Shown here: in pieces, positions 24,014 through 31,701 of the stretch
Layout: every line of letters starts with the position of its first letter
Numbering within the stretch: the stretch's first letter is position 1
Assembly: GCF_900232105.1 (NCBI RefSeq)
Contig: NZ_LT934425.1
Coordinates: 2,250,001 to 2,282,000, forward strand
DNA from: Candidatus Kuenenia stuttgartensis
GTDB lineage: Bacteria > Planctomycetota > Brocadiia > Brocadiales > Brocadiaceae
Length of the DNA stretch: 32,000 nucleotides
Direction: 5' to 3'
The notes under the pieces: generated by a model
Told to the model about the DNA's origin: nothing
What the model saw: the letters and a program-made list of their open reading frames with translations, nothing else
The model's database searches: none
Translations under genes and position numbers: made by a program

Positions 24014-24056
24014 TATTCATACTTATGACAATTTATAGCAAATGCTTCGCCCCTAT
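24014..24056. repeat. fragment of the MITE palindrome (right arm only)
   Basis: ATTCATAC...GCAAATGCTTCGCCCCTA (24038-24056) matches 28153-28169 and its upstream ATTCATAC. It lies in the DUF362/cupin divergent spacer. Confidence 0.55.
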
Positions 24057-24084
24057 ACTAAATATTGTACTAAACATAGCGATA

Positions 24085-25755
24085 ATGGCATACATAAAAA
24101 GAACCCCCTTTTCCCTTTCACTTCTCGTCCTCTTATTCGTCGGCATTGGCTGCACGACCGTTAAGTATTATCCGTCAAACTTTGTAGAATCACTGAAGCA
24201 TCCCACTAAATTCCCGGATATTTTCGATTTTAGTGTGCAAAATATTGAGGATGTCGTGGAAAAGAACCCTCTTCTGGAAGGTGAAGATGTAAAAATTACC
24301 GATGTTGGTGAGAATAGAAATTCCAGCATGCATGTGCTTCAATTGCGTGAAAATACCGAATATTCCTCACATTACCACAAACGCCATGATGAAGTTATTT
24401 ATGTGAAAAAGGGCAACGCTATTGCGATACTTGACGGTACGAGATACATGGTAAAATCGGGGTCCATTTTGCAGATTCCCAGCAAAACGGTACACAAATT
24501 TGTGAATACCGGCGATGAAGCATTTATGGCTATTTCAATTTTTTCTCCGCCTTTTGATGGTAGGGATCAGAAATTTACACAAAAAGAGAAAAAGACAGAC
24601 CGGGGGGCAAAAGAAGAAAAACGGCTTGCAGGTGTTACTGCAAAGAAAATAAAGGAAGAAGTTGAAGTCTCATCAGAGGAAGGCACAGAGAAAGAAATTA
24701 TCGAAGAAACGGAGAAAGTTGCGACAGCAGAGGAAGGTATGAAAGAAAAAGCTGCTTTGCCCTTGTCCGATGTTCGGGATTTTCAAACAAAAAAAGAAGG
24801 TACTGCTTCATACGATTATCTAACGTTAAAAGAGAGGGGTAAAAAAAAGGCAAAAAATGCAGAGTCTGTTGAGCCTCCAGAAGTGGACATCGTAAGTTTG
24901 CATGAAAAACTTACCCGCCTTTTGAAGTTAAAAGAAGAAGGGATTATCTCCGCCGATGAATATGAAAAAAAGAAAGATGCACTGATCATGGGTGGAGAGA
25001 AATATACCTTTGCAGAACCAGAGAATTTGCCGAAAAGAGACTTGCCCCAAAAAGACGCTGCGCTCTTAAAAAAGGTTGATGAATATGCACAACTACCGGA
25101 AGATACATACCGTTTACCCAATGCACCATTAGATAAGCATACCGATATTGAAGAGACCTATTATAAGGAAGAGCCGTATACGCAACCGGGAGGGGAACAA
25201 CGACAGGGAGGGGAGGGTTATGAGGGAACTTCAGCGATTGAGACATTGCCAACGGATCATAAGTTAAGGCTATTGCATGAAATGCTATCGGAAGGCCTGA
25301 TTTCAGCAGAAGATTTTGAAATAAAAAAGAGGGAGTTGGTACTTAAAACAGAAGAAAAGACCTTTCCGATTCCTCCTCCACCAGGCGCTGACAGAGAAGA
25401 AAAGCTTAGCGCCCTTAAAGAATTATATAAAGAGGGGTTGATAACGGAGGAAGATTACCGGCATAAGTATAATGAATTAAGCGTGAAAGAGGAATCAGGG
25501 TCTTTTGCCTTTGATGAGAACCCCTATAATGAAAAAGTAAGCGAGCTGGAAGGGTTATATAATGACAGGCTTATTACAGAAGAAGATTACCGGTTCAAAT
25601 ACAAGGAATTAACAGGTAGGGATGTTTTTACCTCTGATATTATTGATAAAGATGTTAACAATGAAAAATTATCAGAACTTCGTGAATTGATGGAACAAGG
25701 AATCATTACCAAAGAAGACTATGAAGCCAAAAAAGCCCAATTGACAAGCAATTGA
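24085..25755 (+). CDS. cupin-domain lipoprotein with E/K-rich linker and five tandem SHOCT repeats
   Basis: Start moved to ATG 24085 (MAYIKRTPFSLSLLVLLFVGIGC-TT); the 24025 extension reads through a repeat fragment. Cupin motifs HYHKRHDEVIYVKKG ... SGSILQIPSKTVHKFVNTG. There are five copies of the pattern L..L..L...G(I/L)I(S/T).E(D/E)(Y/F)...K..L between about 24890 and 25746. Confidence 0.75.
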   Translation: MAYIKRTPFSLSLLVLLFVGIGCTTVKYYPSNFVESLKHPTKFPDIFDFSVQNIEDVVEKNPLLEGEDVKITDVGENRNSSMHVLQLRENTEYSSHYHKRHDEVIYVKKGNAIAILDGTRYMVKSGSILQIPSKTVHKFVNTGDEAFMAISIFSPPFDGRDQKFTQKEKKTDRGAKEEKRLAGVTAKKIKEEVEVSSEEGTEKEIIEETEKVATAEEGMKEKAALPLSDVRDFQTKKEGTASYDYLTLKERGKKKAKNAESVEPPEVDIVSLHEKLTRLLKLKEEGIISADEYEKKKDALIMGGEKYTFAEPENLPKRDLPQKDAALLKKVDEYAQLPEDTYRLPNAPLDKHTDIEETYYKEEPYTQPGGEQRQGGEGYEGTSAIETLPTDHKLRLLHEMLSEGLISAEDFEIKKRELVLKTEEKTFPIPPPPGADREEKLSALKELYKEGLITEEDYRHKYNELSVKEESGSFAFDENPYNEKVSELEGLYNDRLITEEDYRFKYKELTGRDVFTSDIIDKDVNNEKLSELRELMEQGIITKEDYEAKKAQLTSN

Positions 25756-26422: not shown

Positions 26423-27979
26423 ATGAATAAGTTGATGGAATTATATCGAGACAGGATCGTGGGTGCAATAAGCGGTCTGGACAGGATTCGTTTTCGCGGG
26501 ACATTGCGGTGGTTGGCCAGTGAGCGTGGGATGGGAACATTCATGAACCAAGCGAGAATTCTGCTTAAGGATTTTTCCGGTTGGGTCAATGGGCTTACGG
26601 CACAGGTGCGAGACAGTTGTGAATCGCGGGCGAAAGATTTGGGTATCGAGGTGCGGTATTTGATGAGCAGCGGTGTTGATAAGGAGAAGTTGGCTCGCCA
26701 GATCGCGGCGGATAAGAGGATTACGGAAGGTTCCATCTGCCTGTTGAGTGTGGTAGAGCCTTGTATTGCGCCGATGGTCAAGGGCAACAAGGCCAGCAAG
26801 AAGCTCGAGTTGGTAATGGCGCCCCGCAAGTGTGTCTTTGTGTATCATTATTTTAATGATCCAGTGTTTGGTTTTGGTCATGTTCGTATCCAGAGTTGGG
26901 CGCCGTTTAATATTTTCATTTGTCTCAATGGTCGTCATTGGCTGGAGCGGCAACTTCAGAAGCAAGGTATTGATTATGTTAAGGACGGCAACTGTTTTGT
27001 GCGTATAGAGGATATTGCGGCTGCGCAGGTTCTGCTCCATGAGCAGCTTAAGACTGACTGGGCGAAGCTGCTGAACGGGCTTGCGTTGGGCAGTTGCCCG
27101 GCATTGTCGCAGATTCTTCGTCCGTTGGAACCGGAGTATTACTGGTCTGCGGATGAGACGGAGTGGGCGACGGACATCATGTTTAAATCGGTTGAGGCAT
27201 TGGAGGAGTTGTTTCCATCGTTTGTTCATCATGCGATGCGGGTTTGCGACAGTTCTTCGGTGATGAAGTATTTGGGTAGGCGTAACCTTGCAGGCGCTGC
27301 CCCTGATGAGGTTATCAGCGACTATCGAAGACGCTATGAAGGTATACGGGTCAAGCACAGTGTGAATTATAATTCAGTGAAGATGTATAACAAGAGCGGT
27401 AGTCTCTTGCGTATTGAGACAACGATCAATAATACGCGGGACTTTAAGGTCTTTCGGAGTCCCAATGATGATGAAGGCAAACCGGCGTCATGGCAGAAGA
27501 TGCGTAAGGGCGTAAGCGATCTTCATCGACGGTGTGAGGTGAGCCAACAATGCAATGATCGTTATGGGGATGCTTTGGCGGCGGCTCAGGTAGAGGAGAA
27601 ACTGAAAGAAGTGGTGAGCAGCGCTTGTAACAAGGTTGTCAAAGAGGGCAAGAGGTATCGAGGTTTGAATCCCTGGCAGCAGGATGATTACCAGATGCTG
27701 ATGTTCCTGTCCAAAGGCGAAAACGCGATAAATGGATTCCGCAACCATGATTTGCGTAAGTGGCTTTACCGGGAATCCGAACAATCCGGCAAGGATCAGC
27801 AAAAGAAATATTCCGGACGAACGACCCGACGGATAAAGATGCTGCGGGCACACGGTCTAATCCGCAAAGTTCCGAGGGCCAACCGCTATGTTTTGACGGA
27901 GAAAGGCCAGAAGTTCTCTTGTTCACTGATGACCGCTTCAGCCCTTGATATTAAAGCACTTACGGAAATGGCGGCATGA
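26423..27979 (+). CDS. uncharacterised 518-aa protein with C-terminal winged-helix-like motif; compositionally foreign, possibly mobile-element encoded
   Basis: A long ORF whose sampled lines are 53-58% GC, against 32-42% elsewhere. SD GGAGGA precedes the ATG. The C-terminus RRIKMLRAHGLIRKVPRANRYVLTEKGQKF looks like a wHTH. Bracketed by MITEs. No transposase family could be assigned by eye. Confidence 0.8.
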   Translation: MNKLMELYRDRIVGAISGLDRIRFRGTLRWLASERGMGTFMNQARILLKDFSGWVNGLTAQVRDSCESRAKDLGIEVRYLMSSGVDKEKLARQIAADKRITEGSICLLSVVEPCIAPMVKGNKASKKLELVMAPRKCVFVYHYFNDPVFGFGHVRIQSWAPFNIFICLNGRHWLERQLQKQGIDYVKDGNCFVRIEDIAAAQVLLHEQLKTDWAKLLNGLALGSCPALSQILRPLEPEYYWSADETEWATDIMFKSVEALEELFPSFVHHAMRVCDSSSVMKYLGRRNLAGAAPDEVISDYRRRYEGIRVKHSVNYNSVKMYNKSGSLLRIETTINNTRDFKVFRSPNDDEGKPASWQKMRKGVSDLHRRCEVSQQCNDRYGDALAAAQVEEKLKEVVSSACNKVVKEGKRYRGLNPWQQDDYQMLMFLSKGENAINGFRNHDLRKWLYRESEQSGKDQQKKYSGRTTRRIKMLRAHGLIRKVPRANRYVLTEKGQKFSCSLMTASALDIKALTEMAA

Positions 27980-28195: not shown

Positions 28196-28849
28196 AACCC
28201 GACAGAACCCATCAATAAGTATTTCCCGCTAAAACGTTGTAACTCCTAATTAGGAAACCTGTTTCCGGCGTACATCTTTCTGGCATACATTTCGCTCATT
28301 TATCACACCTGACGTCTGTTTAAATTGAGTTACCTATCCTGCCAATACTTTTGCGTTTGATATTTTATTGCGAATAAAATATATATATCCCGAAAAATAT
28401 CAATGTGAAGCGATTCTTCTTTGTTTTTGGCCGTACGAAAAAGCGGTAAGTTACAGACCAATACATTGAAGGCGTCATTGGTGCATATAGCGTAATAATT
28501 GGTGGAAATCATTTAGGAAACTGGCTGAAATCTTACGTTCGCTTCATGTGCATTTTATTTTTTGAAAGGAGAGTTTGTATTTTTTTATGAGAGATTTGTA
28601 TTCGATCTTTAAAACAATGTAACGGTGTAAGCATAAGGTGAATAGCATGGCGTATTTGTTATAACATGCTTCTTTATTCAGCTTATGCGGTAAAATGGCA
28701 AGGGAAAATGTTGAATGCGCGGCACACTTGATTTTTCTGGAATTTGCAGTAACAGTGATAATTGTGAAGAAATATCATTGTATTTGGGGAATTTGTAATC
28801 AAGAGCAGAAACCAATATTGTATATTTAAGAAAGGGGGACAAGCAAGTG

Positions 28850-30607
28850 ATGAAAAAACTGACATTAGTATTGTATATTTTTTTTATTGGCCTCATAAGT
28901 TTTCTGTTTATAGAGGGAACAAAGGTTCATGCAAGTGCACTGTTTGAGGATGAATTTGATGGGAAATCTCTGGAAAATTCATGGATTATATTACGTGAAA
29001 ATCAAAGTGATATTAGTCTTACCGAAAGCCCGGGGCATTTAAGGATTATATCCAAGGCTGAAGACTTGTGGCAAATAAATGTTAACAACAAGATTAAACT
29101 CCTTCGCCGTGGACCACATGGCGATTTTGAAATAGTCGCCAGGTTAACGTATGATCCCAAAGAAAAGTTTCAGCAGGCAGGAATAATCCTATACGAGGAT
29201 GAGGAAAACTATGTAATGCTCACCCGCCAAAAAGATGACGCACAGCACGTCGTAATGAGCAGGTCTGTTTCTAAAACGGAAGGTGCGAAATCTGCCGCCA
29301 CATCATTGACAACGTTGTATTTAAAATTAACAAAGTCCGGGGAAAGTATTTCCGGCGCTTTCAGCACGAATGGAGAAACATGGACGACCGTAGATCACAT
29401 TTCCGGCTTACATTTTAAACATCCGCAGGTCGGCTTGGTAGGTTTTAACGCTCAACAAAAAACCACGGCCAATGCGGACTTTGATTTTTTTAAGATAAGT
29501 GCAATAGGCGGAGGGGTTGCTTCTGCAGTGGAGGAATTGCTCGAAGTAAATAAATACAACAAATCCATTCACGTTATGGCAATGTTGATGGTAGGTTTCG
29601 GATTTTTAATGGTCTACGTAAAAAGATATGGCTGGGGGGCTGCTACCGCCACCTATATTGCCGTGAGTTTTGTTATTCCTTACTACATGTACTTAAAATC
29701 AAAGGGGCTATTCGGAGAGGTAGCGGAATTTCAAATAGACCGTTTAATCCTCGCGGAATTCTGTGCGGCGTCCATGCTTATTGCAATGGGGGCATATTTG
29801 GGAAGATTAAAAATGTCTCAGTATATTATTGCGGCATTGTTGTTTGTTCCTTCCTATATGCTTAACGAATGGATTATGTTAGACGATGGAATGGGTTTGA
29901 TACCAAAGGGGAAGCTCATTGATACGGGCGGGTCGATAGTTATCCATCAGTTTGGTGCATATTTTGGATTGGGCGTAATAATAAGGATGACCACAAAGGA
30001 AGACTTCTCGAAAGGTATTGAGTCCGATAAGATAAGCAATCAGTATTCGATGCTTGGAAGTATGGTGCTGTGGATATTCTGGCCATCGTTTTGTGCGGCA
30101 GCCGCCGAGGCGTCACAAATGGTTACTGCGGCGATAAACACTATTCTTTCCTTATGTGCCGCAACAATTTCTACTTATCTTGCGACAACGTTGATTCGAA
30201 AGAAAATCGTTATTGAAGATATGGCAAATGCCGCACTTGCCGGCGGTGTGGCTATCGGTTCTTCTTGTGCTCATACAACGCCAAGGGCAGCGCTGATGCT
30301 AGGTTTCATAGCCGGTATTTTGAGTGTCATTGGCTTTGCACTCATACAACCACGGCTTCAGAAAATGATTAAGGGTATTGATACCTGCGGCGTTCATAAC
30401 CTTCATGGTATGCCTGGTATATTGGGTGGTCTGGCAGCAATTTTTATGGCAGGCAGCGCAGTGCCGGGATTGCAGATAAAGGGGGTTGTTATAACCTTTG
30501 TCGTGGCCATTATTACCGGGCTTGCAAGCGGGACGGTGGTTTCTCTGTTTGGCCACAGAAGAGATTCTTACAATGATGAAGAAGAATTTGTAGTGGAAGC
30601 CCACTAA
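28850..30607 (+). CDS. fusion protein: signal/TM anchor + ConA-like (DUF1349 / GH43-C-like) domain + Rh-type ammonium channel
   Basis: N-terminal hydrophobic LTLVLYIFFIGLISFLFI. Residues about 30-225, FEDEFDGKSLENSWIIL...PGHLRII...DFEIVARL...QQAGIILYEDEENYVMLTR...FSTNGETWTTV, match the ConA-like lectin/glucanase pattern. Then Rh signatures HQFGAYFGLG, WIFWPSFCAA and DTCGVHNLHGMPGILGGLAAIF. The start is ATG 28850 or GTG 28847; the SD GGGGGA lies at 28834-28839. Confidence 0.8.
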   Translation: MKKLTLVLYIFFIGLISFLFIEGTKVHASALFEDEFDGKSLENSWIILRENQSDISLTESPGHLRIISKAEDLWQINVNNKIKLLRRGPHGDFEIVARLTYDPKEKFQQAGIILYEDEENYVMLTRQKDDAQHVVMSRSVSKTEGAKSAATSLTTLYLKLTKSGESISGAFSTNGETWTTVDHISGLHFKHPQVGLVGFNAQQKTTANADFDFFKISAIGGGVASAVEELLEVNKYNKSIHVMAMLMVGFGFLMVYVKRYGWGAATATYIAVSFVIPYYMYLKSKGLFGEVAEFQIDRLILAEFCAASMLIAMGAYLGRLKMSQYIIAALLFVPSYMLNEWIMLDDGMGLIPKGKLIDTGGSIVIHQFGAYFGLGVIIRMTTKEDFSKGIESDKISNQYSMLGSMVLWIFWPSFCAAAAEASQMVTAAINTILSLCAATISTYLATTLIRKKIVIEDMANAALAGGVAIGSSCAHTTPRAALMLGFIAGILSVIGFALIQPRLQKMIKGIDTCGVHNLHGMPGILGGLAAIFMAGSAVPGLQIKGVVITFVVAIITGLASGTVVSLFGHRRDSYNDEEEFVVEAH

Positions 30608-30636: not shown

Positions 30637-30680
30637 AGACCTCCTGCGTTTAATAAAACGCAAGAGGTCTTTTATTTTTA
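30637..30680 (+). terminator. Rho-independent terminator after the Rh fusion gene
   Basis: AGACCTCCTGCGTTT-AATA-AAACGCAAGAGGTCT pairs at 14 of 15 positions (30637-30670) and is followed by TTTATTTTT (30671-30679). Confidence 0.8.
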
Positions 30681-30690
30681 AGGAAAACAT

Positions 30691-31701
30691 ATGAATAAAA
30701 TAATTGAATGTGTGCCTAATTTTAGCGAAGGAAAAGATCCCCGGAAAGTAGCAAAAATTGCAGATGCGGTTCAAAGGGTTAAGGGGGTGAAATTGCTGAA
30801 CGTCGAATCTGATCCGGACTATAACCGCACGGTAATTACCTTTGCGGGAGAGCCGGAAGCAGTAAGGGACGCTGCATTTTCTGCAATAGAAACGGCAGCG
30901 AACGTTATTGATATGACACTGCAAAAAGGGGAACATCCGCGTATTGGCGCAACAGATGTTTGCCCTTTTGTTCCCGTGGCAAACATTACCATGTCTGAAT
31001 GCGTTAAAATCGCACATTTATTAGGTAAGGATGTTGGAGAAAGGATTGGTATTCCCGTGTATCTTTACGCGGAGGCGGCAAATGTACCCCGACGTTATTT
31101 GCTCCCGGACATACGGAAAGGCGAATATGAAGGCCTTTCAAAAAAAATGAACGATGCGGAATGGCGGCCTGATTACGGCCCTTCAGTATTTAACGACCGT
31201 GTGAAAAAAACAGGCGCCACGGTGATTGGCGCGCGGGAATTTTTAATTGCTTACAATGTGAATCTTGATACTGACGATATTTCCGTTGCCAATACTATTT
31301 CAGGGATGATCCGGTCTTCGGGGAGAATGAAATTGAATGAAAAAGGGGAAAAGGAGCGTGTTGCCGGTACGCTGAAATTCGTTCAGGCAATGGGCGTGGA
31401 TTTAAAGGAATACAAAATTACTCAGGTATCCACCAACATCCTGAATTATAAAGTAACCCCGCCGCATGTTGTTTTTGAAGAGATAAAGAAACTTGCAAAC
31501 GTTTATGGCGTAAACGTCCGTGGCAGCGAGGTTATCGGCCTTATACCAAAAGGCGCTATTATTGAGGCAGGACGTTTTTATTCTTCGGAAGAAAATGAAC
31601 AAAACCTTGTCAACGTTGCAGTAGAAAAACTGGGATTAAGCCAGCTCAATAAATTTGTACCGGATAAAAAAGTTGTTGAGTATATGCTTGGACTGAATTG
31701 A
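30691..31701 (+). CDS. ftcD: glutamate formimidoyltransferase
   Basis: 336 aa. N-terminal IIECVPNFSEGKD, SDPDYNRTVITFAGEP and EHPRIGATDVCPFVP are hallmark formiminotransferase motifs. No cyclodeaminase domain. Confidence 0.85.
   Translation: MNKIIECVPNFSEGKDPRKVAKIADAVQRVKGVKLLNVESDPDYNRTVITFAGEPEAVRDAAFSAIETAANVIDMTLQKGEHPRIGATDVCPFVPVANITMSECVKIAHLLGKDVGERIGIPVYLYAEAANVPRRYLLPDIRKGEYEGLSKKMNDAEWRPDYGPSVFNDRVKKTGATVIGAREFLIAYNVNLDTDDISVANTISGMIRSSGRMKLNEKGEKERVAGTLKFVQAMGVDLKEYKITQVSTNILNYKVTPPHVVFEEIKKLANVYGVNVRGSEVIGLIPKGAIIEAGRFYSSEENEQNLVNVAVEKLGLSQLNKFVPDKKVVEYMLGLN

Follow-up and report, generated by a model that had tools for sequence, protein, structure and literature searches.

Locus and gene product

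Within a 32,000-nucleotide stretch of the Candidatus Kuenenia stuttgartensis genome (contig NZ_LT934425.1, positions 2,250,001 to 2,282,000 of the forward strand; hereafter the window) lies kustc0381, also KSMBR1_2086, a gene whose product joins an N-terminal ConA-like beta-sandwich to an Rh50-type ammonium channel (Table 1). The gene occupies one unbroken frame (28847/28850 to 30607, forward strand; 586/585 amino acids, aa), and its product is covered by three Pfam families: GH43_C2 over aa 34-216 (E=7e-24, 85.1 bits, gathering cut-off 22.7), DUF1349 over aa 69-217 (E=1e-13, 51.5 bits, cut-off 32.4) and Ammonium_transp over aa 237-568 (E=1e-48, 166 bits, cut-off 23.2). Matassi 2017 described the Kuenenia RH50 gene as adjoining those for a glutamate formimidoyltransferase (kustc0382) and a glutaredoxin-like protein (kustc0383). 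Since these same two genes stand 3' of the window open reading frame (ORF), and in agreement with Table 1 of PMC7438415, we identify this ORF as kustc0381. Public records hold this exact protein on 50 contigs, and its architecture is found again both in 21 clusters at 90% identity and in several single-contig genomes; the fusion is thus not an assembly artefact. This disposes of a concern raised in an earlier, sequence-only reading of the window, that the two halves might be separate genes in the true sequence: there is a single ORF, and it recurs in independent assemblies.

Table 1. Features of the kustc0381 locus, in window coordinates.
Feature	Position	Strand	Basis
Cupin and SHOCT-repeat lipoprotein gene (kustc0377/KSMBR1_2084)	24025..25755	+	Pfam Cupin_2 and SHOCT x3
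Candidate sigma54-type -24/-12 promoter-like element, TGGCATACATTTCGCT, GG-N10-GC	28281..28296	+	Sequence; conserved in orthologous loci
Insertion of about 175 bp in the 5' leader, this strain only, about 60 nt ahead of the start codon	28615..28789	+	blastn against Kuenenia sp. Bin_40 (L011)
Shine-Dalgarno sequence AAGGGGG	28832..28838	+	Sequence; 11 nt ahead of ATG 28850
Coding sequence, ConA-like/Rh50 fusion protein, 585 aa (kustc0381/KSMBR1_2086)	28850..30607	+	ORF, Pfam, structure alignment, homologues
Signal peptide or N-terminal anchor, aa 1-28/30	28850..28939	+	Hydropathy; AlphaFold2 (AF2) helix aa 2-18
Extracytoplasmic GH43_C2/DUF1349 ConA-like beta-sandwich, aa 31-217	28940..29500	+	Pfam, AF2, Foldseek, omega
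Gly-rich linker SAIGGGV, aa 218-224	29501..29521	+	Low pLDDT aa 207-224 (full-length model); alignment
Rh50 core, aa 225-585: juxtamembrane helix, 11 transmembrane helices, short cytoplasmic tail	29522..30604	+	NeRh50 3b9w alignment, AF2
His366 codon, upper twin-His	29945..29947	+	Invariant in alignment A1; aligned with His of NeRh50 SIAIH
His519 codon, lower twin-His (NeRh50 His324)	30404..30406	+	DTCGVHNLHG motif aligned with NeRh50
Intrinsic terminator, hairpin 30637-30670 and T-tract	30637..30679	+	RNA fold
ftcD, formiminotransferase domains only (kustc0382)	30691..31701	+	Pfam FTCD_N and FTCD

The channel core and its topology

Residues 227-581 align with residues 8-361 of the Rh50 protein of Nitrosomonas europaea (NeRh50, 3b9w) from end to end and without large gaps (E=2.7e-106, 360 bits). 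The corresponding scores are 184 bits for human RhCG, 176 bits for RhAG and about 41 bits for E. coli AmtB, and the NCBIfam Amt models score far under their cut-offs. The distance between the NeRh50 and AmtB scores shows the core to be of Rh rather than Amt type; six separate Amt genes are found elsewhere in the Kuenenia genome. The pore residues of NeRh50 are intact, with the twin histidines H366/H519, Phe304, Cys513 and the WIFWPSF motif all invariant in alignment A1 (the NeRh50 numbering of C318 and H324 follows a 2026 preprint; a 2023 review was also used).

The full-length AF2 model, used for helix counting only, contains 11 transmembrane (TM) helices between aa 222 and 566 (the first spanning 222-253, the last 539-566), after which some 18 residues remain with no further Pfam domain. 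The positive-inside rule is obeyed, by MKK at the N-terminus and KR following TM1. Three features, namely a C-terminus in the cytoplasm, KR behind TM1 and a signal peptide, together place the sandwich on the extracytoplasmic side of the membrane, in either the periplasm or the anammoxosome lumen. Each sandwich is predicted to sit directly above its own subunit of the channel, and we infer the orientation of the resulting cap over the trimer. The organisation given by the sequence-only reading is correct throughout: the motifs HQFGAYFGLG, WIFWPSFCAA and DTCGVHNLHGMPGILGG that it listed are all found in the protein, the core that it called Rh50-like rather than AmtB-like is so by its scores, and both the N-terminal hydrophobic anchor and the outward-facing ConA-like domain of roughly 200 aa are borne out, the latter by Pfam, AF2 and Foldseek at about 190 aa and by the topology reasoning above.

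The extracytoplasmic beta-sandwich

By hydropathy, the N-terminus comprises MKK and an 18-residue hydrophobic core followed by VHA/SA or ASA/LF, and the multiple alignment revealed a homologous signal peptide in every orthologue, plain Rh50 proteins included. This segment is thus probably a Sec-type signal peptide that is presumably cleaved. Modelled separately, aa 29-225 fold into a beta-sandwich of 15 strands (pLDDT 82, pTM 0.83), a prediction obtained from a shallow input alignment of 17 rows; a word-index search with the ectodomain alone gave only three proteins. Foldseek found the closest structures to be the C-terminal domains of GH43 beta-xylosidases (TM 0.73-0.80, E~1e-11), together with the DUF1349 structures 3o12 and 3mep (TMt 0.72-0.76). 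The GH43 catalytic five-bladed propeller (Glyco_hydro_43) is absent from the protein in the Pfam scan, and we therefore conclude that kustc0381 does not encode a glycosidase. Identity as a GH43 beta-xylosidase was rejected on the same ground, the UniRef name being a carry-over from the C-terminal module of GH43 enzymes.

In the alignment, plain Rh50 and kustc0381 share the helix beginning near aa 225 (VASAVEELLEVNKYNKS...), so that the true linker between sandwich and channel is only about seven residues long. In most members the ectodomain is acidic (pI 4.8-5.6, net charge -4 to -8); P0013 is neutral (pI 6.95).

A short form of the protein in Brocadia-type genera

Brocadia-type orthologues are about 465 aa long and contain Ammonium_transp as their sole Pfam domain. 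In about 25 of some 30 such proteins, the tblastn and HMMER matches to the Kuenenia sequence begin at residue 172-191, which lies inside the sandwich; in the remaining five the match begins only at residue ~218-224. The multiple alignment places a homologous signal peptide at the start of the short form and, after it, about 65 residues that align to the first and last strands of the sandwich. At the junction, for instance, a Brocadia-type sequence runs directly from IQENHSDW into NTWSSID, opposite a Jettenia-type sequence in which IRENQSDW and NAWTTVD are separated by about 115 aa. A hidden Markov model (HMM) of the fused domain matches the Brocadia extensions colinearly, at HMM positions 3-29 and 142-180, and profile-profile alignment with hhalign yields two colinear local matches at these same edges (P=2.7e-4 and 9.7e-3). 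Pairwise scores reach z = 5-7 relative to shuffles. The edge motif D-F-x-S-x-L-D-x-x-W...W is also present in unrelated members of the module family; the edge sequences are therefore intrinsic to that family, which argues for a deletion from the domain and not for an insertion into a linker. Hence the Brocadia N-terminal extension appears to be a relic in which the two domain edges survive after the presumed in-frame loss of about 115 aa, an observation that appears to be new. The relic is acidic, with a pI of 4.1-5.3 and 8-13 D+E residues against 1-5 K+R.

Orthology of the long and short forms is supported by their surroundings. GDT1, IGPS, thioredoxin and FeThRed_B genes lie downstream of both the Jettenia fusion gene and the short gene of Brocadia sinica and, as these neighbours and the upstream cupin-SHOCT gene are shared, we regard the Jettenia and Brocadia genes as positional orthologues. 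Fusion and Brocadia-type cores are 72-74% identical and their juxtamembrane helices are homologous. In a tree of the Rh core, fusion and relic forms make up one clade with 100/100 support and a long stem. Kuenenia is sister to the remainder, which is poorly resolved and mixes Jettenia-type fusions with relic forms. The approximately unbiased (AU) test rejected neither grouping; that a single relic clade is not rejected (p=0.18) fits the junction being identical in all 17 of 17 relic sequences. Measured against every other Rh50 protein, including those from the remaining Brocadiales families, this stem has a length of about 1.05 substitutions per site, and the Rh core may have diverged fast at about the time of domain capture. 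One Brocadia-genus genome (G003:C133:527-1754) carries the Rh orthologue in two overlapping frames (query 176-389 and 386-584), through either a frameshift or a sequencing error.

Selection on ectodomain, relic and core

The two forms differ in how the segment ahead of the channel evolves. Among fusion lineages, omega (the ratio of nonsynonymous to synonymous divergence) is 0.03-0.11 for the ectodomain and 0.04-0.09 for the core; among relic lineages it reaches 0.14-0.56 in the relic, where constraint is relaxed, against 0.02-0.06 in the core. The pattern is the same in pairs with low synonymous divergence (dS): Kuenenia stuttgartiensis and Kuenenia sp. Bin_40 give 0.11 for the ectodomain and 0.09 for the core, while the relic pairs L021/L023 and L019/L024 give 0.49 and 0.46 for the relic beside 0.04 and 0.05, respectively, for the core. 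Of the 182 ectodomain positions, 67 do not vary, and 11 of these are lineage-specific. Because its omega is as low as that of the core, we conclude that the domain is functional where it is present. Conversely, Brocadia-type orthologues lack the fold and constrain their core equally, which suggests that the module is dispensable for conduction.

Distribution of the fusion and of the module

Among Rh relatives, the three-domain architecture was confined to the 21 clusters mentioned above, which derive from Kuenenia, Jettenia ecosi and metagenome-assembled genomes (MAGs) of wastewater and lakes. Scoring the ectodomain alone among proteins of 322-1024 aa returned these same fusion proteins and three unrelated glycosidase-like proteins. 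An exhaustive HMMER scan of 1.84 billion representatives revealed 2,392 related module clusters. An Rh core occurred in only one of the best 150 of these, the Kuenenia representative, and no other Rh or Amt fusion was seen among them. The module relatives are secreted and highly modular, occurring as tandem arrays in giant proteins, in fusions to an M23 peptidase, lipase-like hydrolases, GH30 with CBM6 and DUF2961, and also as single-module proteins of about 235 aa with signal peptides.

In the GTDB family to which the host belongs (44 genomes, 12 genera), the full fusion is present in 10 genomes of four genera, the shorter orthologue in about 30, and neither form in four. Across the order Brocadiales, the module was found in 10 of 89 genomes and four of 27 genera, as one copy per genome and always within an Rh frame of about 600 aa; none of the 89 genomes carries it outside such a frame. 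Its confinement to the Rh frame of 10 genomes suggests that the module has its source outside the order and that a single capture placed it where the signal peptide meets the mature Rh protein. A module search of the Kuenenia genome found no second strong copy. The only other GH43_C2-like signal in that genome (G000:C1:167584-167832) reaches 22 bits, under the cut-off, in a 233-aa frame.

Plain Rh50 genes proved far more widespread among prokaryote MAGs than the roughly 30 known in 2017 would suggest, with more than 525 loci in one scan (L036-L090 among them). Their hosts include Bacteroidota, Omnitrophota, Zixibacteria, Cloacimonadota, Aminicenantes, Sedimentisphaerales, Dehalobacter and a Methanobacteriota MAG.

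Published expression and a candidate sigma54 element

The sequence-only reading knew of no Rh channel with a lectin-like N-terminal ectodomain; this claim of novelty does not survive, since Smeulders et al. 2020 (PMC7438415) list the gene as 'KSMBR1_2086-conA / kustc0381-xyl' and describe its N-terminal ConA-like domain. The same authors report a single transcript, call the protein the rare prokaryotic Rh homologue and state that what it does 'remains to be elucidated'. The domain fusion of the Kuenenia RH50 goes unmentioned in Matassi 2017, and no paper in the literature that we searched joins Rh50 with DUF1349. The fusion is thus already published as a remark, without analysis or explanation, and it is rare, not common. 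What is new here is its proposed single capture, its confinement to four genera, the relic in Brocadia-type genera, the contrast in selection and the conserved sigma54-type element.

The supplement of PMC7438415 shows kustc0381 to be about 18-fold up under ammonium limitation, at 1054 reads per kilobase per million (RPKM) against 58 under nitrite limitation (log2FC 4.56, padj 3e-71), which makes it the fifth entry of the differential list. In a 2025 fractionation study, 94% of this protein was recovered with the membranes. Upstream of the gene lies a candidate sigma54-type element (Table 1). In 13 of 26 loci from Kuenenia, Jettenia-type and Brocadia-type genomes, the pattern TGGCAY-N5-TTCGCW precedes the start codon of the orthologous gene by 250-600 nt, where about 0.005 per locus would be expected by chance (the reference consensus is TGGCAC-N5-TTGCW). 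In 12 loci, mostly of the Wunengus-type group, even a relaxed form of the pattern is absent within 900 nt upstream. The genome encodes rpoN (E=2.9e-60), and the putative element fits the 18-fold induction under ammonium limitation.

Leader, terminator and neighbouring genes

The leader insertion in this strain interrupts sequence that is otherwise kept, as blastn finds window positions 28229-28614 and 28790-28900 contiguous in Kuenenia sp. Bin_40. A 271-bp leader segment has no full-length repeat elsewhere in the genome. Downstream of the gene, the strong terminator proposed in the sequence-only reading was recovered by RNA folding (-24.4 kcal/mol, z=-4.43, with 0 of 200 shuffles as good). Its stem is made up of 7+7 pairs parted by one unpaired base per side, and owing to these unpaired bases a simple terminator scan had missed the hairpin.

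The next gene, ftcD, had been tentatively linked to the channel on the grounds that its pathway releases ammonia. That link has to be amended on two points: the product of ftcD lacks the ammonia-releasing cyclodeaminase domain in Pfam, and the gene is nevertheless co-induced with the Rh gene by about 12-fold (160 RPKM under ammonium limitation, 14 under nitrite limitation; PMC7438415 supplement). Co-induction despite the strong terminator between the two genes suggests either read-through or co-regulation. The adjacency of ftcD and Rh is Kuenenia-specific, this neighbourhood not being kept in Jettenia or Brocadia.

Upstream, the cupin-SHOCT gene kustc0377 is 46% identical over its full length (E=9e-143) to the gene directly upstream of the Brocadia sinica Rh gene, and a cupin-SHOCT gene precedes Rh in Kuenenia, Jettenia and Brocadia, the loci including L010:5874-7517 and, in Jettenia, L008:1-1452. 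Expression of kustc0377 does not rise along with that of the Rh gene (48 versus 63 RPKM; PMC7438415 supplement). Between the two lies kustc0379/KSMBR1_2085 (26423-27979, forward strand), a GC-rich ORF of 518 aa that has no Pfam family and only a sub-threshold winged-helix match. It registers 0 RPKM in both conditions of the same supplement, is absent at the matching position in Brocadia and Jettenia, and looks like a mobile insertion.

Discussion

We consider it somewhat better than an even bet, at roughly 55%, that kustc0381 encodes a low-affinity, nitrogen-limitation-induced Rh50-type conduit for NH3/NH4+ on which three tethered, non-catalytic sandwiches bind a glycan or protein and thereby position or tune the channel. 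Such a conduit would be switched on when ammonium is scarce, and the outer face of the trimer would be crowned by the three sandwiches. Each sandwich would serve as a non-catalytic accessory module for an envelope or luminal glycan, or for a partner protein, and its binding would position or tune the channel rather than enable conduction. The module would stem from a single capture, with a source outside the Brocadiales, that took place in the ancestor shared by the Kuenenia/Jettenia/Brocadia Rh clade; strong purifying selection would then have held it in four genera, and in Brocadia-type genera an in-frame deletion of about 115 aa would have turned it into an acidic, fast-evolving tail of about 65 aa. 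The accessory, binding-type character of the domain is suggested by its secreted and highly modular relatives and by the lack of a GH43 catalytic domain in this protein. The roles put forward in the sequence-only reading, in which the ectodomain would tether the channel to a glycan or cell-wall structure, gate it or concentrate its substrate, are at present hypotheses.

Several points weigh against this interpretation. We identified no ligand, partner or binding site for the sandwich, GH43_C2 and DUF1349 having no defined signature for such a site, and in GH43 enzymes the corresponding domain shapes the catalytic pocket and is not a lectin; binding is here deduced from how the domain is used only. 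In the full-length AF2 model the sandwich and the linker are of low confidence (pLDDT 30-75 for the sandwich). The protein, with its signal peptide presumably cleaved, may reside in either the cytoplasmic or the anammoxosome membrane, and Medema 2010 predicted, by computation only, an anammoxosome location for it. With respect to its history, individual profile matches of the relic are weak, the Rh tree does not fix the order in which relic and Jettenia-type lineages arose, and many pairs have a saturated dS, although the low-dS pairs show the same pattern.

An acidic sandwich or, in Brocadia, the still more acidic relic tail held over the outer vestibule might recruit NH4+ electrostatically. 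It would thereby make up for the S1 ammonium-binding site (W148/S219 in AmtB) that Rh50 lacks and render a low-affinity channel useful when ammonium is limiting; NeRh50, which has no S1 site, shows an apparent affinity about 70-fold lower than that of AmtB in the literature. The low pI of most ectodomains and of the relic, the linker of only about seven residues and the induction of the gene on ammonium limitation are all in keeping with this idea. Nevertheless, the sandwich carries a modest net charge and P0013 is neutral, the relic evolves fast, and electrostatics would leave the conservation of a whole 190-aa fold unexplained, so that we regard a vestibule or affinity modulator as unlikely. 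The short tether would equally suit an autoinhibitory cap that blocks the extracytoplasmic mouth until a ligand opens it, a form of outside-in regulation, much as GlnK plugs the cytoplasmic side of Amt; no glnK adjoins the Rh gene, and the ectodomain has lineage-specific invariant residues. A gate on this side of the membrane is, however, without precedent in the Amt/Mep/Rh family, regulation is already exerted at the level of transcription, and Brocadia manages without the domain, all of which makes this kind of control improbable. Alternatively, the channel may reside in the anammoxosome membrane, as predicted by Medema 2010, with its sandwich docking hydrazine synthase (HZS) or another luminal complex so that NH3 is handed over directly. 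The hzs genes are co-induced under ammonium limitation, and the 2025 fractionation study found the transporter and HZS both to be about 95% membrane-associated and in the same size-exclusion chromatography (SEC) fraction (12.0-12.5 mL). Yet NXR elutes in this fraction too, which renders the co-elution unspecific, and Brocadia-type anammox bacteria possess HZS and not the domain. We hold substrate channelling of this sort to be distinctly unlikely, and attach the same low expectation to its broader form, an ammonia-channelling metabolon with HZS or another luminal or envelope complex that would operate under ammonium limitation in Kuenenia- and Jettenia-type organisms and would have been abandoned by the Brocadia type. 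Were it true, kustc0381 would encode the first member of the Amt/Mep/Rh family to bind a partner through an extracytoplasmic domain.

Two further explanations deny the protein either its transport function or a working ectodomain. Kuenenia has repurposed Amt modules as sensors, Ks-Amt5 among them, and Smeulders et al. (PMC7438415) suggest that some paralogues may not transport; kustc0381 might by analogy be an ammonium sensor, or transceptor, instead of a transporter. With pore residues that match those of the transporting NeRh50, and with about 18 residues past TM11 offering no cytoplasmic output domain, a sensory role seems very improbable. That the ectodomain is functionless baggage could be argued from Brocadia, which shed most of the domain and kept the gene. 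However, an ectodomain omega of 0.03-0.11 across four genera speaks against baggage, and against a frameshift or assembly artefact stand an identical architecture in complete genomes and dozens of independent assemblies and the single transcript reported in PMC7438415; we find either proposal scarcely credible.

A conduit carrying tethered accessory sandwiches, our preferred explanation, can be set beside several known systems. NeRh50 (3B9W/3B9Y/3BHS) shares the 11 TM helices, the twin-His pair, the equivalents Phe110 and Cys318, the WxFWPSF motif, a signal peptide and an extracytoplasmic N-terminus. It is thought to shed its signal helix and differs in having nothing between signal peptide and N-terminal helix, where kustc0381 has a beta-sandwich of about 190 aa; furthermore, N. 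europaea is without Amt, whereas Kuenenia has six. Ks-Amt5 (kuste3690) and Sd-Amt1 likewise fuse a channel module of the Amt/Rh family to an extra domain. Theirs, however, are cytoplasmic output domains (histidine kinase and diguanylate cyclase) placed at the C-terminus of Amt-type cores that no longer transport, whereas in kustc0381 the fused domain is N-terminal and extracytoplasmic, and the core is of Rh type, keeps its pore intact and lacks any output domain.

For the sandwich, the C-terminal domain of GH43 beta-xylosidases (GH43_C2; 6MS2, 2EXH, 3C2U) provides the same fold, but there it packs on the catalytic domain and contributes an active-site loop, and its identity to the kustc0381 ectodomain is 18-24%. 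Stand-alone DUF1349 proteins (yeast 3O12; Erwinia ECA2234, 3MEP) agree in size and fold, and the bacterial single-module relatives have signal peptides; with the solved structures identity is nonetheless 12-15%, with the best metagenomic relatives it does not exceed about 39%, and no mechanism can be transferred from them.

In oceans and in wastewater, anammox bacteria eliminate a substantial fraction of the fixed nitrogen, and on its way to hydrazine synthase ammonium has up to three membranes to cross. kustc0381 is among the five genes most strongly induced on ammonium limitation and, in these searches and the literature searched, is the only Amt/Mep/Rh protein with an extracytoplasmic folded domain. 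As the domain is strongly selected where present and Brocadia represents a natural deletion mutant, the role of an ectodomain in an Rh channel becomes a tractable question.

The public names of the kustc0381 product derive from its N-terminal module and thus hide the Rh ammonium channel: it is labelled 'DUF1349 domain-containing protein' at NCBI and 'beta-xylosidase family' in UniRef (records P0003 and P0011). The Jettenia records read 'Ammonium transporter'.

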